64,000 nucleotides of DNA from Promethearchaeota archaeon (GTDB lineage Archaea; Asgardarchaeota; Lokiarchaeia; Sigyniarchaeales; SOKP01): contig JAUVXW010000003.1 in the NCBI GenBank assembly GCA_030603385.1, positions 96,001-160,000 on the forward strand, written 5' to 3'. A program made the translations under genes and the position numbers. This document shows positions 6,796-19,747 of the stretch, piece after piece (position 1 is the stretch's first letter; each line of letters begins with the position of its first letter). Under the pieces are notes generated by a model, which did not search any database, was not told the DNA's origin, and saw only the letters and a program-made list of their open reading frames with translations.

Positions 6796-9648
6796 TTAAA
6801 TTATTGTAACTTCTGACATTTCTCTTAGAACCTTGATATGATTGGTGAACTCATCATTCGAACATAGATTTAGTAATTCTTTCTTCGAAATTTCAGCAGC
6901 ATCATTTTTTTCTCTAAATTCAAAAGGCGAGAGAATACCAGAAGAACTCTTCTCCTTCAATTTATTAACTATTTTCTCAATTTCTTGGTTAAATTCATCC
7001 AAATTTTCTAAGTTTTCAGATAATGCTGCTGGAAGACTTGAATGTACTTTTTTCAAAGAATTTGAATACTTTAGAAGTGTCTTAGAAAATTCAAGTCTTG
7101 ATTCTATGATTTCATGCATTTTTTCTGATTCATCTAAGAGCTTAAACATAATTTCGTAATACTTAATTTCATTTTTATCTCTATTAAGAAATTTTGTTAA
7201 GTTGATAATTTTTTGAGATGCATCAAAATCCTTAAAATTTTCATAATCTCTAATTCTATTTTCAGTATCTTTGATATCGAGTTGAAGTTGTTCTAGTTTC
7301 TGGTTGCTTAGATATTTGTCTAATTTCATTATTTTTTTTTGGTATTCTTGTTCATCAAGAACTGTTCTTGTAGTTTCAAACACTTCTGGTAGCGGAGTAT
7401 ATAAATATTTTAGTAGCAATATATATATCGAATGTTCTGGATTAGCGACTTTGTAATCAAAGAATTCGATAGTATCAATATTTTCTCTTAAATCTACTAA
7501 TAGTTTAAAGAATTTTCTAATAGCTAACATATTTTGTTGGGCATCAAAAGCAATTTGATACATCTCTTTAAAATATTTATTATAAAATCTGTTTGCTAAA
7601 TCAAGTTTTTGAAGAAATGAATTTACAATTGGGATTAGTTCTCCTGTAAAACCTGATTTTTTATATTCAGTACCAATATCTTTTAAACGCTCTTCTTCAC
7701 GATATGTAATTATTTTAATTATTAACTCAGGAAAATCTTTTGTAACAATATCATATGTTTTTATGAAGTATCCTTTTTTACTTAGAACTGGAACGATTGT
7801 ATTAATTGTCATTGTCCGTTGTTGAATTGCTTTAAGATCTTCTGAAAGTATTCGGTTAATATGTTCATCGATATTTTGCTTTTTCTCAAAATTTGCAACT
7901 TTACGATCTTTTAATAATTGATTGAGTCTAATTCCTCTGATTTGCGCATTCCTACCACCAAACATCTCAATAAAAATTGTTCCAAGAATCCTAAAAGCCA
8001 AAGCTGCTGTTAATTTTTTATCTTTTTCCGCATTTATTAAAATCTGATTAGTCAACATTGTTAGTAAACGAAATATAAATGTTCTTTCTTTTTCTCTTGG
8101 AATTTCTTTTATTTTTTCATGATACTGCTCTTGTATTTGATCCACTGGAAACTTATTTTCCCATAGAAAATCTAAGATTCGATCTCCCTCTGGGTCTGAA
8201 AGGATATCAAGAAAACGAGGAATAATTTCTGCTATTGCATTAGCCCAACTAAAATGCTCTTTTGCCAAGGGAATTTCATCATGGAATTCCGCCAACAAAT
8301 CATGAATTAAACCTCCTTTCTCAATCATCTTAGGTCCATTATATCTACCGAGAGTGTGGATAAGTATTTCATCAAAATTTGGCTCTGAAGACAAAGGCAT
8401 ACGTACTTCTATCTTCTCTAAAAATGCCTTAAATAAGTTGAATAGGCTTCTAACTTTATGATTTGATCTATTTATAATAAATTGATTGATTTCTGCATTA
8501 TTTAAATTACTTAATTCATTTAAGGAATTTGCAAACATGATTGCTCCATTAAATAATAACTCTACTTTTTCGGGTTCATGATAAGAAGCTGTTTCTGAGA
8601 ATTTAAATAAAAATTTTGCTAGATCAGAGCCAAGATATTCTCTGTGTTGTTCTGGAATTTGATCAATTGCATTTAATAATTCTTCCATTAACATTTGAAT
8701 CATGTCCTGACCCACTATAAGAGAATATTTCTTTTCTGCTCGTTTCAAAAAAGCTTCAACATCTGTAAATTGAATTCGTTTTTCTTCTTTCCCTAACAAA
8801 TGAATTAGAATATCTTCTAAGCTTTCACATTTTTCAATTGAACCTCCATTCTTAATTTCATTCAAAAATGCTATAAATAAATCTAATATTGTAAAAAATT
8901 TGTTCTTACTTCTTTTTATTATTTCTTGATTGATTTGCTCCTTAGATATTCCATTTAGATTAGAAAGTGCCCTATTGAAAAATAATACATGATTTAATAT
9001 TCCCTCTAAGGTTTCAGCAGGTAGATTCTCAACATTTTGAGAGAACTTAAACAGATATTTAGGAATCTCAGAGCTAATATAATCTTGAATATTTTCATCT
9101 ACTTTAGAAAAGGTTGTTATTATTTTTTTTGAGTAATTTTGTGATTTTTCCTCTCCAATTTTGGTTTTAAAATTCTTCTCAGCACGTTTGATAAATAATT
9201 CTAAATCATTTAATTGAGCAATTTCAGCTTTATCTCCAAAAATATAAGTGAGAACATCTTCGAAATTTCTACCTTTTTCAAAAATTCCCCCATTTTTAGC
9301 TTTCTCAACTAGAATATTTAGTAAATCAGAGAGGTTTCGCACTTTATTATTGCTTCTCTTAATTAAAAGTTGATTCATTTGATTACTATCTTTATTTATT
9401 AAATCTCTTAGTGACTCTGCAAATATTGAAACGTGCTTTAGAACGTTTTCAACTATTCCTGGGGATACATCCTCAATTTCTTGAGAATAATTAAATATGA
9501 ATCTTGGGATCTCTGAACCAATAACACGTCTAAATGTAGCAGGAATTTCATTCGTAGTTTTTCTTATGGTTTCCAACGTGGATGTCGCTTGTGCTTCTCC
9601 CAATTTTTCTTTAAATTGTCTTTCAGCTCTTTTTAAAAAAACTTCCAT
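6796..9648 (-). CDS. Hypothetical 950-aa helical protein with three N-terminal 148-aa repeats and a C-terminal coiled-coil-like region
   Basis: Long ORF; repeats begin MEVFLKRAE / LELFIKRAE / VEAFLKRAE; no enzyme motif recognised. Confidence 0.85.
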   Translation of the reverse strand: MEVFLKRAERQFKEKLGEAQATSTLETIRKTTNEIPATFRRVIGSEIPRFIFNYSQEIEDVSPGIVENVLKHVSIFAESLRDLINKDSNQMNQLLIKRSNNKVRNLSDLLNILVEKAKNGGIFEKGRNFEDVLTYIFGDKAEIAQLNDLELFIKRAEKNFKTKIGEEKSQNYSKKIITTFSKVDENIQDYISSEIPKYLFKFSQNVENLPAETLEGILNHVLFFNRALSNLNGISKEQINQEIIKRSKNKFFTILDLFIAFLNEIKNGGSIEKCESLEDILIHLLGKEEKRIQFTDVEAFLKRAEKKYSLIVGQDMIQMLMEELLNAIDQIPEQHREYLGSDLAKFLFKFSETASYHEPEKVELLFNGAIMFANSLNELSNLNNAEINQFIINRSNHKVRSLFNLFKAFLEKIEVRMPLSSEPNFDEILIHTLGRYNGPKMIEKGGLIHDLLAEFHDEIPLAKEHFSWANAIAEIIPRFLDILSDPEGDRILDFLWENKFPVDQIQEQYHEKIKEIPREKERTFIFRLLTMLTNQILINAEKDKKLTAALAFRILGTIFIEMFGGRNAQIRGIRLNQLLKDRKVANFEKKQNIDEHINRILSEDLKAIQQRTMTINTIVPVLSKKGYFIKTYDIVTKDFPELIIKIITYREEERLKDIGTEYKKSGFTGELIPIVNSFLQKLDLANRFYNKYFKEMYQIAFDAQQNMLAIRKFFKLLVDLRENIDTIEFFDYKVANPEHSIYILLLKYLYTPLPEVFETTRTVLDEQEYQKKIMKLDKYLSNQKLEQLQLDIKDTENRIRDYENFKDFDASQKIINLTKFLNRDKNEIKYYEIMFKLLDESEKMHEIIESRLEFSKTLLKYSNSLKKVHSSLPAALSENLENLDEFNQEIEKIVNKLKEKSSSGILSPFEFREKNDAAEISKKELLNLCSNDEFTNHIKVLREMSEVTII
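8317..9648 (-). repeat. Three tandem 148-codon (444-nt) diverged repeats within the CDS
   Basis: Gapless alignment of aa 1-148, 149-296 and 297-~440 (FxKRAE, S[ED]xx[RK][FY]xFx[YF]S, NQxxIxRS, [ED][DE]xL...G). Confidence 0.9.
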
Positions 9649-9958: not shown

Positions 9959-11722
9959 TTAATTATCATAAACTAAGGTCTCTGATTCTTTTTGTTCTAA
10001 TGCCTTCTTTTGCATCCAAACAGGGGGATTCACACACCAAATGTAATGTCCCTCTTCGATTGTTATTTTATGAGGCGTTTTACGCATACATTCTTTCGTT
10101 CTTGCATCTGAAATACACCGGGGATTAAAAGTACATCCTGAAGGAGGTGCAATTGGACTCGGAACCTCACCCTTAATAACAAACTTAATTTCTTTATCGC
10201 TAGGATCAAGCTCAGTTCTTGAAGCTAATAATGCTTGAGAATAAGGATGAGTAGTATTGGAAAATATTTGATCAGTCTCCCCAACCTCAACGAATTTGCC
10301 AAGATACATAACCGCAACTCTATCGGCAATGTGATTAACAACAGCTAAGTTGTGTGTTATAAATAAAAATCCGTAACCATAAGTTTTCTGCAACGCTTTT
10401 AACAAATTAAGAATTTGAGCTTGAACTGAAACATCTAGAGCGGATGTAGGCTCATCTAAAATTATTAATTCCGGATTACTTGCGAGGGCTCTCGCAATGA
10501 TAATTCTTTGTTTTTGACCACCTGAAAACTCATGAGGGAAGCGATCCATATGTTCTCGCTTTAAGGAAACTTCATCTAACAGTTTTAACACTCGTCTTCT
10601 AATTTCTTCTTTCTTGGTAATCCCTAATAAATTCCGCAGCGGTTCTGCTATGATATTAACAACTTTCATTCGAGGATTTAATGATGCATCAGGATCTTGA
10701 AAAACGATTTGAATTTTTTGTCTTAGAAATTTTGCATAATCATTAGGAATAGGTTCACCATTAAATATAATTTCACCTGCTTCTTTTGGAACTAATCCTA
10801 AAATAGCTTTCGCAATGGTAGTTTTTCCACAGCCACTTTCTCCTACTAAACCTACAGTTTCGCCAGTATTTATATTGAAAGTGACACCATCAACAGCTTT
10901 AACGGATCCAAACTGTCTTTTTAACATTCCTCCAATCAAAGGATAATAGACTTTTAAATTTCTTACTTCTAATAATTTTTGATTTTTTTCAAGAATATTG
11001 ATGTCTCTGTATTGATCGAAAGCTAAGTTGGATTGAGCTAAAATTTTTACGATAATGCTTACTATTATTGTGATTACTACCCCCCACACAAGATGAGTAA
11101 AAAAACCTTGGATGAAAGCTGCCTCTTTTAATTCAAATATGTGCGCCAAGTAATAGAATCCGGGTATTATCGTTATCATGATAATGGTATTTTTATTTGT
11201 TAGAAACTGGGCTTTATTTCCCCAATTTATGAAAAAACCATTAATACCAACTATAATCAACATTATTAAAAAAAGCGCCAAACCAGCTGAATATACATCG
11301 TCTTTTTCACTGGTGACCATAAGTCTTACTACATCATTAGTAATTCTCAATAAAAAACCCAAAGCATATAACATAGCCTGAAAACTAATGATAAGAATAG
11401 AAGATTCTATAAATTCTTTATTAGCTGATTTCGATACTATAATTGAGGATATCCCTATCGTTATCAAAATAACTATAAGATCAGAAATTATGGATAATGT
11501 AAATCCTGCTCCAAGAAAATAGAGAAATATGAATTTAAAAGAAATGTTAAGGAAAAACCAAATCAAATTCACAATGATTACAAAAGAATCATTCCAATCT
11601 TTTCTTTTCGCATATGCCTTTAAAAAAGACACCCCATAAAAAAGTACTAAAATAGAGATGAGAAATCCAATAACTAACTCAGATAAAAATAATCCCGTGG
11701 ATATATTTGATGGTATTTGCAT
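9959..11722 (-). CDS. oppF: Oligopeptide/dipeptide ABC ATPase (OppF/DppF type) fused to an N-terminal polytopic membrane domain
   Basis: GESGCGKT, FQDP, FSGGQKQR, ILDEPTSALD, THPY and C-terminal Cys cluster; first ~230 aa hold about 6-7 hydrophobic segments. Confidence 0.9.
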   Translation of the reverse strand: MQIPSNISTGLFLSELVIGFLISILVLFYGVSFLKAYAKRKDWNDSFVIIVNLIWFFLNISFKFIFLYFLGAGFTLSIISDLIVILITIGISSIIVSKSANKEFIESSILIISFQAMLYALGFLLRITNDVVRLMVTSEKDDVYSAGLALFLIMLIIVGINGFFINWGNKAQFLTNKNTIIMITIIPGFYYLAHIFELKEAAFIQGFFTHLVWGVVITIIVSIIVKILAQSNLAFDQYRDINILEKNQKLLEVRNLKVYYPLIGGMLKRQFGSVKAVDGVTFNINTGETVGLVGESGCGKTTIAKAILGLVPKEAGEIIFNGEPIPNDYAKFLRQKIQIVFQDPDASLNPRMKVVNIIAEPLRNLLGITKKEEIRRRVLKLLDEVSLKREHMDRFPHEFSGGQKQRIIIARALASNPELIILDEPTSALDVSVQAQILNLLKALQKTYGYGFLFITHNLAVVNHIADRVAVMYLGKFVEVGETDQIFSNTTHPYSQALLASRTELDPSDKEIKFVIKGEVPSPIAPPSGCTFNPRCISDARTKECMRKTPHKITIEEGHYIWCVNPPVWMQKKALEQKESETLVYDN

Positions 11723-11799
11723 ATTAAATCCTTTTTTTCATAATTTTTCAATGTTTATATATTAATATTTTATTTTTCATTTACTCATTTATCTAAGAA

Positions 11800-14727
11800 T
11801 TAATTTTCTGCTTCTTTTATTGAGATCTCAGCGATATCCTTGTATTCAGGGTCATAAAGATGGCACGCTACAAAATAATCTGGTTCGATTTCTATGCTTT
11901 TAGGGGCCTTTGAATCACATGGTTCAAAACAATATTGACATCGAGGATGAAACCTGCAACCTGAAGGGGGATAAATCAAATTCGGTACCATTCCTGGTAT
12001 TACATCAAGCAATTCCCTTTTCTTCCCTATAACTGGTACAGATGATATAAGTCCCCGTGTATATGGATGATAGGGTGTGATAAATAATTTTTCTATGTCA
12101 CCATATTCAACGATGAATCCACTATACATTACAGCTACGCGATCACACATTTTAGAAATAATTCCTAAATCATGAGTGATAAAAAGTATCGAGGTGTTAT
12201 ATTTTTTCTTGAGGTTTTTCATTAATTGTAATATCTGGTTTTGAATTGTGACATCTAGGGCCGTAGTAGGCTCATCAGCAATTAATAGTTTAGGACTACA
12301 AGCAAGACCCATTGCGATTTGAACACGTTGTCGCATTCCACCACTTAATTCATGTGGATATCTATCAAATATTATTCGTGGAACGGGTATATTTAAATCT
12401 TTTAATATTTTTCTACTCCATTTTCTCGCAATATCATAGATACTTGTATTTTTTTTAACTGCTTCAATTAACAACTCATCCTCCATATGAAGACGATAAA
12501 CTTCGGCGATTTGATCCCCAATTTTATATACAGGATTTAACGAGTTAAGGGGATCTTGAAAAATCATAGTGATTTTATTTCCTCGATATTTTAGAAACTC
12601 TTCTTCAGTTTTATGATGCAGATCTTCTCCCTTAAAATATACTCTCCCACTCTTAATTTCACCTGGAGGACGAACCAATCGAAGGATAGATAACGCAGTC
12701 ACAGATTTACCACATCCTGTTTCTCCAACAAGACCGAGAGTCTCACCTTCATATATCTTAAACGAAACACCTTCTACTGCTTTAACTACGCCTTCCACTG
12801 TATAAAAATAGGTTGTGAGATCTTGAACATCTAAGATAGCCTCTTTTCTCTCTACCATAGTGTCTTGAAGCTGACTTTCTTCATAAGGTTTAAAAGCAGC
12901 ACTGAATCTATCGCTCATTTTCTCAGTAGAATCTGGCATAATCTGGATCCTTAAGGAACCAAGAATTGAAATAATATATATACCTGAAGCGACTAATAAT
13001 GGAATCCGGAGATCTGTAAAGCTATAATGATAAGAAATAATAAGGGATTGGAATAAACCTAGTATAAGACTCACACCTACGGTAGCTAAGTATACAACAA
13101 TTAGAGCGATTATCACAAATTTAAAAGATTCGGAAAATTTTCGTTTATACACCTTTCGAACTATTAATGTACCAATAATAATATTACTAACTGATATGAG
13201 AAATTCAATATATAAAATTGGGATTAACATATCATATTCTGTTGGCCAAACATGATCTGCCCAAAAAACGGAAAAGATTCTAGAATATGAAAACCCAAAT
13301 TCTGAGAAGGCTATAAATATAGAAACTCTACTGGCTACACTAAAAAAGAATAAAACTAAAGCAACCCTAGCGGCTTTCTTTTTAACAAATGATGCATTTT
13401 TCATTGACGCATCCCACATTTTTATTGATGTAGCATACCACCATATAATCCTAATACCTAACGTAAACATCACAATCGAGAGAATGGTAATGAATGTTAT
13501 GTTTAAGATAAATATCTCATTAATCAAGATAAATATATATAAATAGATTACAAGAAATGGTACAACCCAAATCCAATACGTTATAAATCCTCCAAAAAAA
13601 GCAGCGTGTTGAAGTAGTATTTTTGATGCCCGTTTGTTGACAGGATTCATCTTATTAAATAGATATGTAATAGATAGATCTGCAACAACCGTAAAAAGAG
13701 CACTCATACCACTTAGAAAAAGTACTCCTACCAAAGTATTTGAACTTAGAAGTATTTTAAATATCGAAATTATTATTATCGGTAAGCCCCATATTAATCC
13801 TATGATAATCTTATTTGAAGTAGTATTGAATTTACTCTCTAATAATGAAACATCATCTATTGATTGAGATTTATCAAATTTCCTTAAAAAATATATATAA
13901 ATTTTAAGGGAAATCCCTTGCGGAAAACGACGATCTTTATCCCCACTAATATCCTCTTGATCTTCTGATAGAAGTTCTTTTTCATTTGTATCCTGTTTTC
14001 TATTAAACTTCTTTAATTCAGATTCTAACAATTCTTTAACTCTTTTTTCACTTTTTTCACTAGCGTCAGGCAACAGTTTGCTTTTCAGTAAATTAAAAAA
14101 GACAGTAATATATAATCCTGTTACTACAATAGTTAATACTCGAATATCTTGCATAATAATTTGATATCCAAGCCATTTATGTATATATACTTCAAATATA
14201 ACAAGCTGAATAAACCAAATACCAAATGCAATAAACGCTCCTCCGTACATAGAATTTTTAAGTACCATTTTTTCTATTCGTTTCTCATCCACCAAGGTTC
14301 TATTAATTATTGATGTAATAATGATGCAAATGAAAACTACTCCAAAACTCCATAATACACCTAAGCTGAATTTATCAGGATAATTAGGAAACGAAGGATC
14401 CCTCAGTGAAATTTGAAGTAGTGTAATTGAAAGAAAAATTGCTGAAAAAGCCCATGCTATTATCATTAAAAAAAAAATATATTTCTTGAAACTGTAATTT
14501 TGGGGTCTTTCTTCATTTAAAACCTGTGAATAACCAAATTTTCCCAAAAATGGTTTATGGAGAAAGAAAAAGATCGTTACCATTATAGCAAAGTATAATA
14601 CATCATTATTTAGAATCCTAAATATATACCCATACATCCCTAAGGTTTCAAATATCATTCTGATACCCAATATGATACCGAAAATAATTAAGCTGGTTAC
14701 CAATGAACTTAATTGATATATTCTCAC
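11800..14727 (-). CDS. oppD: Oligopeptide/dipeptide ABC ATPase (OppD/DppD type) fused to a ~620-aa polytopic membrane region
   Basis: GETGCGKS, LSGGMRQR, IADEPTTALD, HPYT, GCRFHPRC...VACH; ATPase domain starts at about aa 630; frame stays open upstream to 14865, so the true start may be near 14853. Confidence 0.9.
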   Translation of the reverse strand: MRIYQLSSLVTSLIIFGIILGIRMIFETLGMYGYIFRILNNDVLYFAIMVTIFFFLHKPFLGKFGYSQVLNEERPQNYSFKKYIFFLMIIAWAFSAIFLSITLLQISLRDPSFPNYPDKFSLGVLWSFGVVFICIIITSIINRTLVDEKRIEKMVLKNSMYGGAFIAFGIWFIQLVIFEVYIHKWLGYQIIMQDIRVLTIVVTGLYITVFFNLLKSKLLPDASEKSEKRVKELLESELKKFNRKQDTNEKELLSEDQEDISGDKDRRFPQGISLKIYIYFLRKFDKSQSIDDVSLLESKFNTTSNKIIIGLIWGLPIIIISIFKILLSSNTLVGVLFLSGMSALFTVVADLSITYLFNKMNPVNKRASKILLQHAAFFGGFITYWIWVVPFLVIYLYIFILINEIFILNITFITILSIVMFTLGIRIIWWYATSIKMWDASMKNASFVKKKAARVALVLFFFSVASRVSIFIAFSEFGFSYSRIFSVFWADHVWPTEYDMLIPILYIEFLISVSNIIIGTLIVRKVYKRKFSESFKFVIIALIVVYLATVGVSLILGLFQSLIISYHYSFTDLRIPLLVASGIYIISILGSLRIQIMPDSTEKMSDRFSAAFKPYEESQLQDTMVERKEAILDVQDLTTYFYTVEGVVKAVEGVSFKIYEGETLGLVGETGCGKSVTALSILRLVRPPGEIKSGRVYFKGEDLHHKTEEEFLKYRGNKITMIFQDPLNSLNPVYKIGDQIAEVYRLHMEDELLIEAVKKNTSIYDIARKWSRKILKDLNIPVPRIIFDRYPHELSGGMRQRVQIAMGLACSPKLLIADEPTTALDVTIQNQILQLMKNLKKKYNTSILFITHDLGIISKMCDRVAVMYSGFIVEYGDIEKLFITPYHPYTRGLISSVPVIGKKRELLDVIPGMVPNLIYPPSGCRFHPRCQYCFEPCDSKAPKSIEIEPDYFVACHLYDPEYKDIAEISIKEAEN

Positions 14728-14869
14728 TAATGATTCCCCTTTAAAAGAAAACTTTACAAGAAAAATTAAAATCAGTAATAATAGCAGTAGTGAAAATAGA
14801 GATTCAATTATAGCATATCCGTAATTACCAACTTGAAATGTTATTCCAATAATTTTTAATCCCTCTTAT

Positions 14870-15859
14870 TTATATATGTAATCGAGGATCTAAAGCATCC
14901 CTCAATCCATCACCTATTAACATAAACCCAATAGCTGTAATTGCAATAAAAAGCCCGGGCCAAAAAACTGCATAATATGCACCCCAATGACCCCTCCCAT
15001 AATTGATATCAGTGCCCCAATCTGCAAAAGATTCATCTCCTAATCCCAAGAAAGCAATGCCTACAAAACCTAAAATTGCACCTCCCATTGCTCCGAAGAA
15101 ACCAATGATGATAGGAGACATTGCATTTGGCAAAACATGTCTAAACATTACTTTAAATTTTTCCGCCCCACTAGTTATTGCAGCCTCGACATAGACATTC
15201 TGTTTTACTTGCAGCACTAGGGCTCTTACCCATCGAGTAGATCCTGGTATACTAAAAAGGCCGAAAAGTATCAGTATGTTATATAAACTATTACCAATGA
15301 GGGGTGCTACAATAATTACAAGAATTAATACAGGAAAAGAAAACCAAAAATCACAAAAACGCATTATTATTGAATCTATTTTTCCACCAAAATATGCAGA
15401 TATCGTCCCTACAGAAAGCCCTCCAAGGGTACCAATTATAACGGGTAAAGCCGCCGCTGTTAGTGCTGTTCTTGCGCCCCAAATTATTCTTCCAAGAATA
15501 TCAAATCCATATTCTGTTGTGCCTAATGGGTGTTCTGGCGAGGGGGGAAGGAATGGTGTCTCAGGGAGAAAATCGGGTGGTGTTAAATGATCTATTGTAA
15601 ATGTAGTTAACCAAGGAGCATACATACCCATAAAAGCAATGAATAAGATCATTACCATTCCAGCTATTGTCAAAGGCGTAAGTAGGCGTCTAAATAATTT
15701 CCTTTTAGATTTTATTTTCCCTATTTCAAATTCAGTAGCTTCAAATTCTGGATCCCGCCATCCAGGTACTAAGTAGAATTTTAACAATCTGGAGAACTTA
15801 TTCTTTTTGTCTGCTTGAGATTCATATCTTTTGGTTTCTTCTACAGAAATTTGCTTCAG
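14870..15859 (-). CDS. oppC: Oligopeptide ABC permease (OppC/DppC)
   Basis: PPSPEHPLGT..G.DI, EAA loop YVEAAITSGA, GDGLRDALDPR; ORF track starts at TTG 15787, but the frame is open to a CTG at 15859 behind an SD-like GGAAGTGA. Confidence 0.92.
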   Translation of the reverse strand: MKQISVEETKRYESQADKKNKFSRLLKFYLVPGWRDPEFEATEFEIGKIKSKRKLFRRLLTPLTIAGMVMILFIAFMGMYAPWLTTFTIDHLTPPDFLPETPFLPPSPEHPLGTTEYGFDILGRIIWGARTALTAAALPVIIGTLGGLSVGTISAYFGGKIDSIIMRFCDFWFSFPVLILVIIVAPLIGNSLYNILILFGLFSIPGSTRWVRALVLQVKQNVYVEAAITSGAEKFKVMFRHVLPNAMSPIIIGFFGAMGGAILGFVGIAFLGLGDESFADWGTDINYGRGHWGAYYAVFWPGLFIAITAIGFMLIGDGLRDALDPRLHI

Positions 15860-15883
15860 TTTTATTCACTTCCTTTATTTTTT

Positions 15884-16951
15884 TTAATACAAAATTCTTG
15901 GATCTATAATTGTATAGGCAACATCTGCAATGAGAGTTCCTGATATTATAATAATCGTTGAAAAAACAAGAAGTCCATTTATTACTAAATAGTCACCGCT
16001 TGTTATAGCTATCAGCATGGTGTATCCAAATCCAGTATAGTTAAATGTAACTTCTACATATAATGACCCTAATAGAGCTCCTGCGGTCCCTGCTATAACG
16101 AGATGACTGGTAGGGAGTATCGCATTTCGAAGAGCGTGTTTATTAATGACGTCTTTTTCCAAAACACCTTTAGCACGCGCAGTTCTAATATAATCCTGAT
16201 CCAGCACACCTAGCATACTAGATCGAGTCTGCCTCGTAATCCCAGATAAAGATACAAAAATCATACAAATTACTGGAAGAATTAAATGAACAAGTGTATC
16301 CCATAAATAAATCTGATCATTATACAAAATACTATCAATTAGTCTAAATCCTGTACCACTCCCTCCTGATGGAACCGGAGTATTCAATATCGGATTATTA
16401 GGTAATAACACCTCAATAAAAAATTTCTCATGGGTAAATGTCCTTAATTCAGAGCCAATAAATAATTGTAGCAGGGTGGCAATATAAAAGATTGGAAATC
16501 CTGCTCCAACGATTGCTATTCCTCTAATTAATGAATCTTTTGGCGTATCTTTATGTTTTGCAGAGGTAACCCCAAGTTTAATACCGATAATTGGTACTAT
16601 TATAATCGAAAATAGCATCAACTCTATCGTCTTTGGAAAAATCTGAGCAATTAATTCAATTACAGGTGTGTTTTCGGCTATAACAAACGATTCACCCCAA
16701 TCTCCAGCGAAAAACCTTCTAAGATATATACCGAGTTGTACATACCATGGATCGTAGAAACCAGATCTTCGCAATTCTGCTTCATATCTAGCACGGTCTA
16801 CCACAGTCCCAGGAATCTTATTCAATGCAGGATTAATAGACATCTGGTGAGATAAAATCCATGTAAATATCAATACTGCTATAAGAATAGGAAACATTAG
16901 TAAAATTCGTTTAATAACATATTTTATCATATTTCGGGCTTGACGAGTCAT
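15884..16951 (-). CDS. oppB: Oligopeptide ABC permease (OppB/DppB)
   Basis: KYVIKRIL, GDWGES, P.TIEL, QDYIRTARAKG, KHALRNA, IDPRI. Confidence 0.95.
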   Translation of the reverse strand: MTRQARNMIKYVIKRILLMFPILIAVLIFTWILSHQMSINPALNKIPGTVVDRARYEAELRRSGFYDPWYVQLGIYLRRFFAGDWGESFVIAENTPVIELIAQIFPKTIELMLFSIIIVPIIGIKLGVTSAKHKDTPKDSLIRGIAIVGAGFPIFYIATLLQLFIGSELRTFTHEKFFIEVLLPNNPILNTPVPSGGSGTGFRLIDSILYNDQIYLWDTLVHLILPVICMIFVSLSGITRQTRSSMLGVLDQDYIRTARAKGVLEKDVINKHALRNAILPTSHLVIAGTAGALLGSLYVEVTFNYTGFGYTMLIAITSGDYLVINGLLVFSTIIIISGTLIADVAYTIIDPRILY

Positions 16952-17266: not shown

Positions 17267-19747
17267 ATGAATAAATCTACAAAAAGTATAGCTTTTTTCT
17301 TATTATTATCGTCAATAATCCTTCCAATTCTTCCAACAATTACAGTAGCTCAAGAAGAGAACATCGTTTTTAAAGTGTCTGCTTCGGCATTGCCAGATGA
17401 ATGGGACCCCGTAGTTACAGATTGGTACAATGTAATATATGGATCATACGCGGTATTTGCGGTCCAGTATCCCATTGGAACACCTGCGTATTACACCGCT
17501 GGAACACTAGGTCCAATAGAGGATGAGTGGGTCGGAATACTCGCTACTGATTGGGAACTTGAACGTTGGCCATCCGAGGAAAATAGCGCAGATCCACCAT
17601 TTAATAACTCAGGTGGAATAAGAACAGCTACATTTACACTTCGAGAGAATGTGACATTCCACGATGGATCCGATTGGAACGCTACAGTATGGAAATGGAA
17701 TATCGATAGAATGAATATTATTTCCGGAAATTATACCGGTAAATGTCGAAACACAGATGATAATGAAGCTGAAGGAAATCTTATGAACACCATTATCGTA
17801 GAAGATTATAAAACCTATTTTACAGAAACATGGAATATGACAAAATTTGACTCTCCATATCTTGGACTTATTCCGCCTGATCTGGGAAAAGAACCTAAGG
17901 TTACCGATTATGCCTATTATAATCTTGGACCTAATGCGTCCCTTGTCGAATATCCCGGCGTCGATGATATTTTACCAAATAATACTATACGCAATCCTGC
18001 CCCTTATGGAGGCTGGGATTATGTATCGGCTGCTGCCATACATTATGCGCCTTATGATAGATATCCTATTGTAGACTACGTGGAGATCCTTGAAAACCCA
18101 AAATCAGGAGGAAAGATTAAGGTTTACTTTAACCACTGGACCACTTCTGGACTAGCTGGGTGGGTGAATATGCCTATGCTTTCATACCATTCATATAGAA
18201 ATAGTTACACCACTAGAGGTATTTACGGGTATGAAAACGGCGTTGATGATGACCGAAATGCTGGACCAGTCACTCACATGATTGGCACAGGTCCCTACAT
18301 TTATATAGAGCACGATGAAACAGGTACACCCGCAGGGGGTTATATGTTAAAAAATGAGAATTACTGGAATAAAACCCTTCTTGAAGCCGATGGTTGGTTT
18401 GATGTTGATAGATACGAAGTTATTAATTTCCCTACAGGTCAATTAGGAGAAGATTCTAAAAATACAGCCATGCTTACACATGCTATAGATTTTGCATACG
18501 ATTCCATGTATATGCCTTTAGATTATGATGCTGTGTTAAGAAACAAAAATATTAGGTATGAGTCTACTGGGGCTACAACATATAAAACGAATATCGTACT
18601 GAATAGCATCAATGAAACATGGTGGGCATGGCCTGGGTATGATGCTTGGAGGAAAGTTCAATATCCTCGTGCTGGTGATAAACCTGCTGGTGGTGTTCCT
18701 CGAGCAATGCGAAAAGCGATGGGTTATGCGTTTAATTATGATCTTATGATACATACTGCTTTAAATGATCGCGCAGTTCGAGGTGGTGGGGTGCTAGGTA
18801 GCCCCAATATATATTATAATGACAGTATTCCCTTGGCAGATTATAATGTAACGAAAGCACGAGAAATTCTGCTTACCACTGAGAGTGACATATCAGGAGA
18901 AGTTTATACTACCATAGATGTTAATAGTTCATATTGGCCCAATCCCGATCTTTATAATTTCAGTAAAATGTGTGCCGATAGAAGTTTGACCGCAAGTAGC
19001 TCGGATGCTGATTGGCGATATATTGCTGACAACAATCCAATATACACACTTAACTTTTATTGGGATTCTGCTCATGAAGATGTAAAGAGTGTACTTCTAA
19101 CTTCTCTTCGAAATATTGGGTGTACTTTAAAAGACAAAACTGGAGCTACAAATAGGGTTACCACTATAATTTGGGATACAGTCCGTATTGGTCATTTGAC
19201 CACATTTGATGGAATCTATAGTCTCTTTTCTTGTGGTGCGTGGGTAATGGACGAGGACTTATCTCATACATCCCCTGAGTTAAATCTCTTTTGGGCTCAT
19301 GTTGATCCCGATAAAGGGAGATGGCGAACTTTGGGCGGTGGAGGGATCACGAGTTGGCACTATTGGGGTAACTTCGGATTTAATTTTAATGAACGAGCTG
19401 ATTATTATAATGATCGTATGTGGACTTCCGATCCAATGGAAAGAAAAATCTGGATTAATAAATTAGCACACGTCGAGCAAACCGTTGTTTTCCCAAAAAT
19501 CTGGTGTTATGAAGCATTGGGCGGATGGGCTCTATGGAAAGACTGGGAATTTTTTACAGTAAAGAACACAGGAGGACATAATACGGGTCTCTTTGGAGGC
19601 ATTTCAATCAGTTTCTTGAGATATGTAGGTCTTCCAGAAGATTTCGCATTAATTCCCGGAGCTCCATTACTCGTTACATTGACCATTTCAGCAGTTTCGA
19701 CACTCGGTATAATATATGCGATAATGAGAAAGAAAAAACTCAAGTAG
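17267..19747 (+). CDS. oppA: Family 5 (Opp/Dpp) extracellular solute-binding protein with signal peptide and C-terminal membrane anchor
   Basis: Signal peptide MNKSTK..hydrophobic..TVA; LATDW, FTLRENVTFHDGS, IGTGPY, MRKAMGYAFNY; C-terminal IPGA + TM helix + RKKKLK (Loki-CTERM-like); SD aggaga upstream. Confidence 0.93.
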   Translation: MNKSTKSIAFFLLLSSIILPILPTITVAQEENIVFKVSASALPDEWDPVVTDWYNVIYGSYAVFAVQYPIGTPAYYTAGTLGPIEDEWVGILATDWELERWPSEENSADPPFNNSGGIRTATFTLRENVTFHDGSDWNATVWKWNIDRMNIISGNYTGKCRNTDDNEAEGNLMNTIIVEDYKTYFTETWNMTKFDSPYLGLIPPDLGKEPKVTDYAYYNLGPNASLVEYPGVDDILPNNTIRNPAPYGGWDYVSAAAIHYAPYDRYPIVDYVEILENPKSGGKIKVYFNHWTTSGLAGWVNMPMLSYHSYRNSYTTRGIYGYENGVDDDRNAGPVTHMIGTGPYIYIEHDETGTPAGGYMLKNENYWNKTLLEADGWFDVDRYEVINFPTGQLGEDSKNTAMLTHAIDFAYDSMYMPLDYDAVLRNKNIRYESTGATTYKTNIVLNSINETWWAWPGYDAWRKVQYPRAGDKPAGGVPRAMRKAMGYAFNYDLMIHTALNDRAVRGGGVLGSPNIYYNDSIPLADYNVTKAREILLTTESDISGEVYTTIDVNSSYWPNPDLYNFSKMCADRSLTASSSDADWRYIADNNPIYTLNFYWDSAHEDVKSVLLTSLRNIGCTLKDKTGATNRVTTIIWDTVRIGHLTTFDGIYSLFSCGAWVMDEDLSHTSPELNLFWAHVDPDKGRWRTLGGGGITSWHYWGNFGFNFNERADYYNDRMWTSDPMERKIWINKLAHVEQTVVFPKIWCYEALGGWALWKDWEFFTVKNTGGHNTGLFGGISISFLRYVGLPEDFALIPGAPLLVTLTISAVSTLGIIYAIMRKKKLK

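Follow-up and report, generated by a model that had tools for sequence, protein, structure and literature searches.

Both ATPases of an Opp/Dpp-type peptide importer of a Promethearchaeota archaeon carry large N-terminal polytopic membrane domains

The ATPases of type I ATP-binding cassette (ABC) importers are peripheral proteins, and a peptide importer locus of a Promethearchaeota archaeon therefore raises the question of why both of its ATPases, OppD and OppF, begin with a long series of transmembrane (TM) helices. The locus is located within positions 96,001 to 160,000 of contig JAUVXW010000003.1 (assembly GCA_030603385.1), and this whole stretch of 64,000 nucleotides is referred to as the window and supplies the coordinates used throughout. 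The region of the locus is AT-rich with approximately 30% G+C, and its open frames are clean under translation table 11 with no change under table 4. It encodes a type I peptide ABC importer of the canonical Opp/Dpp kind, here in an Asgard archaeon of the Loki type (Promethearchaeia). The genes follow the order oppB-oppC-oppD-oppF on the minus strand and oppA is divergent on the plus strand. The in-frame fusions of the two ATPases to added membrane domains are real and conserved, and are not artefacts.

The oppF open reading frame (ORF, 9959-11722, minus strand) encodes 587 residues, in which a Pfam search placed ABC_tran at residues 278-427 (E 4e-36) and oligo_HPY (PF08352) at 478-537 (E 3e-15) and gave no family for residues 1-250. 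The best NCBIfam matches of the C-terminal part were to DppF/OppF from residue ~245, and the profile matches and motifs together define an OppF/DppF-type ATPase domain at residues 249-587 (9959-10978, minus strand) with cysteines C530, C536, C545 and C563 in the oligo_HPY region. Hydropathy and AlphaFold2 agree on seven TM helices in the N-terminal domain (OppF-N). These are made up of a four-TM module at the N-terminus (residues 13-135; 11318-11686, minus strand), defined by its hhalign alignment to a module inside the OppD membrane domain, and a three-TM C-terminal anchor (residues 141-231; 11030-11302, minus strand) carrying the cytoplasmic motif NWGNKAQF, which was invariant in the alignment. 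A short cytoplasmic linker (residues 232-248; 10979-11029, minus strand), assigned from the AlphaFold2 secondary structure and the loop charges, connects TM7 to the ATPase.

The oppD ORF (11800-14727, minus strand) is longer and encodes 975 residues when read from a GTG codon, with ABC_tran at residues 652-822 (E 5e-27), oligo_HPY at 873-937 (PF08352, E 4e-20) and no Pfam family for residues 1-630. NCBIfam named the C-terminal part OppD from residue ~630, and the OppD-type ATPase domain with its ABC_tran and oligo_HPY matches and cysteine cluster spans residues 630-975 of the called protein P0002 (11800-12840, minus strand). Five cysteines were located in this C-terminal domain at 967, 973, 976, 980 and 998. 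Both ATPases kept the full set of motifs (Walker A, Q-loop, LSGGQ-type signature, Walker B, D-loop and H-loop). Equivalent C-terminal cysteines hold 4Fe-4S clusters in DppD/DppF (PMC12136057), and the cysteines present in OppD and OppF make them putative cluster-binding proteins.

The membrane domain of OppD (OppD-N) consists of seven helices, a charged linker and eight further helices, giving 15 helices when a helix upstream of the GTG is included and 14 from the GTG. The first repeat comprises seven TM helices including the upstream one (14062-14853, minus strand) and has a conserved core with the motifs INRxLxxEKRI, FGIWxIQL and QDIR. It is followed by a charged cytoplasmic linker of ~80 residues containing 19 K/R and 19 D/E (P0002 residues 223-300; 13828-14061, minus strand) and by the second repeat with eight TM helices (residues 301-600; 12928-13827, minus strand), which hhalign identified as a copy of the first-repeat core split by a four-TM module. 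The inserted module itself (residues 407-562; 13042-13509, minus strand) carries the cytoplasmic-face motifs WYATSIKMW and VYKRKxxES. A cytoplasmic linker helix predicted from the AlphaFold2 model and loop charges (12841-12927, minus strand) joins TM15 to the ATPase.

The domain junctions are located at ~10979 in OppF and ~12841 in OppD, and contigs from three separate studies were found to bridge them. An 8430 nt contig of run X1 spans 10329-14865 gap-free and includes both junctions, while contigs of X4 (10889-11759) and X2 (12664-13453) each cover one. The N-terminal 630 residues of OppD retrieved 37 protein clusters, nearly all of ~970-1040 residues with ABC_tran and oligo_HPY and with identity down to 38%, and the N-terminal 250 residues of OppF retrieved 14 clusters of ~585-590 residues, again nearly all with both ATPase domains, the lowest identities in the two sets being 38-40%; a few of the records in these clusters were partial and without full ATPase domains. 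The order oppB-oppC-oppD(TM)-oppF(TM) was present in most fetched loci that had flanks, with oppA close by, and the divergent f2 forms showed the same order. A stand-alone gene for the entire OppD-N or OppF-N domain was not seen in complete contexts. The possibility that a membrane-protein gene had been joined to a soluble ATPase gene by an assembly error, by an overlooked stop or frameshift or by an incorrect gene call can draw on the uncertain start of oppD, where a canonical start codon is missing before the first helix, but it is of negligible probability when table 11 gives unbroken frames, the contigs of independent studies cross both junctions and dozens of independent assemblies contain the same fusion. 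Contigs of an RNA run (X20) also matched parts of both TM regions at ~93-95% identity, although this run may contain DNA and its contigs come from a relative, so that they are not proof of expression.

A preliminary description of the locus had claimed that both ATPases were fused in-frame to large polytopic domains, with about 6-7 TM helices in OppF and 14-16 in OppD and roughly 20 additional helices in the complex. The continuous ORFs, Pfam domains and gap-free bridging contigs bear out the fusions, as does the recurrence of the architecture among other genomes; the helix counts are now put at 7 and 14-15 and the total at ~22. The end coordinate of 14865 given in that description takes in the N-terminal extension of oppD.

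This in-frame extension (14728-14853, minus strand) encodes the conserved pattern xFQxxNYGYxxxES and TM1. The oppD frame is open for 46 codons 5' of the GTG, up to a stop at 14866-14868, and encodes IIGITFQVGNYGYAIIESLF... together with one TM helix. This upstream stretch contains none of the codons ATG, GTG and TTG. Many OppD homologues begin with an ATG here, for example KIIEMIFQYANYGY, and the window reads KIIGITFQVGNYGY with ATA replacing the ATG. The extension was kept in a 94%-identical strain (L019), and three relatives (L014, L016 and L018) were likewise without a canonical oppD start at this place. A GAGGGA motif precedes ATT ATT in the upstream start region, and as judged from sequence the most likely start is an ATT or ATA at 14842-14853 after the GAGGGA, which would give a protein of ~1017 residues with 15 helices. 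These features hint at non-canonical initiation in this lineage.

The AlphaFold2 models had a mean predicted local distance difference test score (pLDDT) of 73 for OppD-N and 66 for full-length OppF, with ~80 in the TM part of the latter. With the N-terminus outside and the C-terminus inside, the short loops contained 26 K+R residues inside versus 9 outside in OppD and 10 versus 1 in OppF. The loop charges favour this orientation and both ATPases are therefore placed in the cytoplasm. The cytoplasmic loops of the TM domains were 3-11 residues in length, the linker between the OppD repeats excepted, and no element resembling a coupling helix was present. The linkers that separate the final helix and the first strand of the ATPase were also short, with ~17 residues in OppF and ~38 in OppD. 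Several residues were invariant over long divergence on both membrane faces, including INRxLxxEKRI, WYATSIKMW, VYKRKxxES and NWGNKAQF on the cytoplasmic face and ND, E..Y and QDxR on the outer face. In OppD-N the outer-face polar clusters correspond to N83/D85, E222/Y224 and Q236-D237-R239 (A3 numbering), and D-x-R repeats occur at 615-617.

The added domains were not recognised as members of any described transporter family. Relatives of OppF-N and OppD-N were not detected in sequence and profile searches of Pfam, NCBIfam and the PDB, and the language-model atlas returned only unnamed clusters with chance-level scores. When the domains were compared with the OppB and OppC alignments the hhalign probability was at most 0.8%, while the positive control of OppB against OppC gave 95.9%. 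Neither domain had the BPD_transp_1 profile or the EAA loop of an importer permease, and the absence of the loop that had been pointed out earlier holds; neither a Pfam match nor kinship with a permease family was detected. The ABC exporter type, with ABC_membrane and long loops bearing coupling helices, was similarly not found, as there was no Pfam or NCBIfam match and the loops are short. For the OppD-N model, which was folded whole (671 residues), the best Foldseek match in the PDB had an E-value of 0.36 and a TM-score below 0.2. The best TM-score in the ESM Atlas was 0.32. The VIA wide search gave a best Z of 10.2 over 134 residues with a root-mean-square deviation of 3.8 to the four-helix N-terminal bundle of WbaP (8t53), a value within the range of this tool for unrelated helical bundles. 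The WbaP bundle resembles the inserted four-TM module in being an accessory four-helix membrane bundle, but the two are 10% identical and the match does not imply a connection in function. The model yielded no convincing fold match, with generic helical bundles as its only hits.

The normal transport path is present next to these domains. OppB (355 residues; 15884-16951, minus strand) and OppC (305 residues; 14870-15787, minus strand) are both BPD_transp_1 permeases, with the coupling motif RTARAKG and the EAA motif EAAITSGA, respectively, and their genes adjoin one another, in agreement with the separate normal permeases reported beforehand. The ATPases and the coupling motifs of OppB and OppC are intact and the grooves of the nucleotide-binding domains (NBDs) therefore keep their usual partners. 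The divergent oppA gene (17267-19747, plus strand) encodes a substrate-binding protein of 826 residues with an SBP_bac_5 domain, a signal peptide at the N-terminus and a TM anchor at the C-terminus. The ATPase motifs, the oligo_HPY cysteines and the permease and binding-protein neighbours all place the system in the PepT/Opp family (Transporter Classification, TC, 3.A.1.5). A T-rich tract is located on the 3' side of oppF.

Two further observations relate to the ends of these proteins. OppC homologues start ~25-30 residues before the TTG start called in the window (15788-15875, minus strand), for example MGQIYLEELEQEKYQ...KFYLIPGWRDPEF, and the oppC start may therefore lie upstream at a non-canonical codon. 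The tail of OppA (19600-19747, plus strand) has the arrangement IPG(A/Y)(P/S), a TM helix and a basic tail, which is also present in the homologues of L004 and L005 and looks like an archaeosortase-type sorting or anchor signal (PGF-CTERM-like).

Profile comparisons indicated how the membrane domains are built. Residues 84-187 of OppD-N aligned with 305-403 (hhalign score 73.5, E 4e-10, with reversed and column-shuffled controls at or below 18) and residues 189-222 aligned with 567-600 (E 7e-6). Residues 13-135 of OppF-N aligned with 407-562 of OppD-N (score 85.5, E 4e-11, with a maximum of 22.9 for the reversed and shuffled controls). The second half of OppD-N is therefore a copy of the first-half core that is split by the four-TM module also forming the N-terminus of OppF. 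Within the same archaeal family this module was also found as a stand-alone protein of ~140 residues (P0103, P0117 and others) and as an N-terminal fusion to a BPD_transp_1 permease encoded in an ABC operon of the SBP_bac_3 (amino-acid) type (P0110, L008).

Three more Opp operons are present in the genome of the window and form a graded series of membrane anchoring. Operon C4 (L004) encodes an OppD of 632 residues with seven TM helices, corresponding to the first unit alone, and an OppF of 572 residues with seven TM helices. Operon C6b (L005), on the same contig as the window, encodes an OppD of 559 residues and an OppF of 454 residues with ~3 TM helices each, the OppF having the ATPase-adjoining anchor alone; the N-terminus of this OppF aligned with residues 141-241 of the OppF described here (hhalign 95.5%, E 1e-8). 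In operon C51 (L006) OppD is soluble, and the OppF (L006:5835-7319, minus strand) has a soluble N-terminus and a ~140-residue insertion within the ATPase, between Walker A and the Q-loop, that forms a hairpin of two hydrophobic helices. A comparable insertion inside the ATPase with four hydrophobic segments was found in another Asgard family (L022:3362-4993). Membrane anchoring of the Opp ATPases is therefore a recurrent lineage trait that has been reached in several ways. Small ORFs with 4-5 TM helices and no Pfam family (204 and 196 residues) are also located just upstream of oppB in L005 (8839-9453, minus strand) and L006 (10805-11395, minus strand), with no detectable relation to the fused domains. 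A stepwise build from a few modules can be proposed, comprising a three-TM anchor beside the ATPase, four further N-terminal helices (in OppF the mobile four-TM module) and, in OppD, a duplication of the unit with the same module inserted into the second copy.

The distribution of the domains is narrow. An OppD-N profile gave 75 matches at E ≤ 1e-3 among 1.84 billion representative proteins. In a survey of 301 sampled Asgard genomes OppD-N was present in 23, including 21 of the 68 genomes of the family to which the window belongs and 1 of the 21 genomes of another family, and OppF-N was present in 27, mostly adjoining OppD-N on the same contigs. Carriers of either domain were almost all from the window's own family. 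The 15-helix OppD occurred in just five of the sampled genomes, and a form of ~640 residues with the first seven-helix unit alone was the common one. In a sister family within the order, OppD has 665-672 residues and OppF ~480, and their N-terminal TM domains are more divergent, and in the rest of the phylum the Opp-type ATPases among those listed were mostly ordinary frames of 320-420 residues. The carriers were titled as Promethearchaeota or Promethearchaeia metagenome-assembled genomes in their records, with a few under other Asgard labels. Close homologues of the seven-TM OppD (up to 83% identity) occurred in L033, L044, L049, L059 and L063, contigs labelled by their submitters as Hodarchaeota, Thorarchaeota or Hermodarchaeota, and these labels or bins may be inconsistent with the near one-family distribution among the sampled genomes.

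The TM parts were ~40-60% identical between homologues versus ~90% for the ATPases, and they also evolve faster than OppB and OppC. Between the window and strain L019 the ratio of non-synonymous to synonymous substitution rates (dN/dS) was 0.6-2.1 in the TM parts, a value from very few substitutions, and it was discarded as uninformative since OppB and OppC also had many amino-acid changes per nucleotide change. The same pair of strains differed unevenly along oppD, with ~5-12 differences per 300 nt in the TM region and the 5' part and 20 and 37 in the last ~530 nt of the gene (11800-12400 in the window), and with a dS of 0.20 in the ATPase part versus 0.04 in the TM part. This pattern suggests that oppD is a recombination mosaic relative to L019.

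What the domains would contribute can be considered against the TMD0 of ABCC transporters (SUR1 and MRP1) and of TAP1/TAP2, which are extra N-terminal bundles of 4-5 helices outside the translocation core that serve as interaction and assembly modules. On balance we lean towards the added domains being accessory tethers or scaffolds of this kind beside OppB and OppC, rather than a second permease, with their packing and role drawn from the analyses above. In such an importer OppA would bind the substrate, OppB and OppC would form the channel and OppD and OppF would hydrolyse ATP, while the added domains would form no translocation pathway of their own. They would hold each ATPase permanently at the membrane beside its cognate permease (OppD-OppB and OppF-OppC) and would offer conserved surfaces on both membrane faces for assembly, for stabilisation or for a partner such as a lipid or the membrane-anchored OppA. 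Pairing of DppB with DppD and of DppC with DppF has been described in the solved structure of E. coli DppBCDF (PMC12136057), and given the intact permeases, this pairing and the short linkers, the added domains would have to sit near OppB and OppC in the membrane. The occurrence of the four-TM module on an ATPase or on a permease fits a peripheral position at the membrane core of the importer. That the domains vary in helix number and diverge quickly speaks against a separate transport route through them, and the invariant polar residues at both faces point to specific contacts rather than greasy anchors. A prediction of a complex of OppB, OppC and OppF-N scored 0.00 in a run without controls and was counted neither way.

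Some points weigh against a tethering or scaffolding role. Contact of the domains with OppB and OppC, or with a partner, is a prediction of this reading. The divergence of the domains relative to the ATPases and permeases, and the range of 0-15 extra helices among the paralogues, could equally be features of an anchor that is dispensable or neutral, and the outer-face polar clusters (ND, E..Y and QDxR) could mean binding or sensing beyond the needs of a scaffold. The first of these alternatives is that the domains are passive and mostly neutral membrane anchors, accreted and duplicated without a specific function, that they do no more than keep the ATPases at the membrane, and that the importer would work equally well without them. 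We regard this as possible though rather improbable. It would account for the spread of 0-15 helices across the four Opp operons of one genome, for the fast divergence and for the patchy occurrence even inside the family, where 21 of 68 genomes carry OppD-N, but polar and charged residues have stayed invariant in the membrane domains over long divergence, one four-TM module has been recruited to three different ABC-importer contexts, and 15 helices would be costly when three suffice in a paralogue.

The second alternative, that the domains form an active membrane unit powered or read by the same ATPases (a sensor or gate, a receptor for the OppA anchor or an extra substrate path) and so couple peptide import to another membrane event, appears improbable to a greater degree. 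The outer-face clusters of conserved polar residues in OppD-N, the anchoring of OppA by a C-terminal helix and the homologous module in OppD-N and OppF-N, which could give a pseudo-symmetric pair, are in keeping with such a unit. The two domains are however very unequal (7 versus 15 TM), the commonest form of OppD is without the shared module, the loops on the cytoplasmic side leave no room for coupling helices, and OppB and OppC are available as partners of the NBD grooves. A transporter or channel fold was also not recognised, though the weak fold matches leave one possible. The accessory-channel role considered in the preliminary description is disfavoured by the helix variation between paralogous operons, the short loops and the fast divergence. 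The system in which the module is fused to a permease has a binding protein with an N-terminal anchor only, and the data were therefore not in support of a receptor for the OppA TM anchor.

A protein of 950 residues with repeats, encoded downstream of oppF (6796-9648, minus strand), was also examined as a candidate partner and rejected because it adjoins oppF only in close relatives. It is 71-81% identical and syntenic in L009 and L011, which share a 90%-identical CTP synthase, and absent at the equivalent place in L012 and L013, so that its position next to oppF appears to reflect common ancestry and not a connection in function.

A more far-reaching reading is that the fused domains would be a novel type of working membrane unit, a TMD0-like hub made from a mobile Asgard-specific four-TM module, that links the ATPase cycle of binding-protein-dependent importers to a membrane partner or signal. 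Such a hub might, for example, capture the TM anchor of OppA, be gated by a lipid or the membrane state, or cluster importers. We consider this reading unlikely; if it were true, the ABC importers of these archaea would be larger and regulated membrane assemblies.

At least two new families of membrane domain are defined by this locus, among them the mobile four-TM module that attaches to different ABC-importer subunits, and the added domains roughly triple the membrane mass of the transporter. Cultured Loki-type archaea have an amino-acid-fermenting, syntrophic lifestyle (summarised in PMC7997004), to which peptide uptake is central, and the build of the importer is for this reason of consequence for Asgard physiology. 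The locus is also a record of membrane-protein evolution through accretion, duplication and insertion of modules, and offers concrete constructs for structural work.

Compared with canonical OppABCDF/DppABCDF systems (E. coli DppBCDF, PMC12136057; TC 3.A.1.5), the importer has the same parts, namely an SBP_bac_5 binding protein, two BPD_transp_1 permeases with EAA-type motifs and two ABC_tran plus oligo_HPY ATPases with Cys-rich, 4Fe-4S-type C-termini. Canonical OppD and OppF are peripheral proteins of ~320-340 residues with no TM segment, whereas the Asgard proteins add a polytopic N-terminal domain of ~235 residues in OppF and ~640 residues in OppD. A description of TM-fused Opp/Dpp ATPases was not found in the open-access literature that was searched, including a survey of Asgard transporters, and by the tested criteria the importer belongs to the PepT/Opp family but has a feature not known for it. 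The long OppD and OppF of the Mycoplasma type (NCBIfam MMSYN1_0167/0168) are also far longer than 330 residues and match the ATPase parts here, but their extra length consists of insertions in the ATPase rather than N-terminal polytopic domains, and only the C51 paralogue of this genome is similarly laid out. The half-transporters of ABC exporters and of exporter-fold importers have the same order of an N-terminal membrane domain and a C-terminal NBD in one chain. Unlike them, the Asgard proteins have no ABC_membrane match and no long coupling helices, their helix numbers are unequal and variable, and separate canonical permeases are encoded in the operon. For the way in which the Asgard domains might work, the TMD0 bundles are the closest analogy, with no sequence or fold relation between the two detected in PDB and fold searches. 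They differ in the partner that they extend, since TMD0 sits on the core transmembrane domain of an exporter whereas the Asgard domains are attached to the NBD of a binding-protein-dependent importer.

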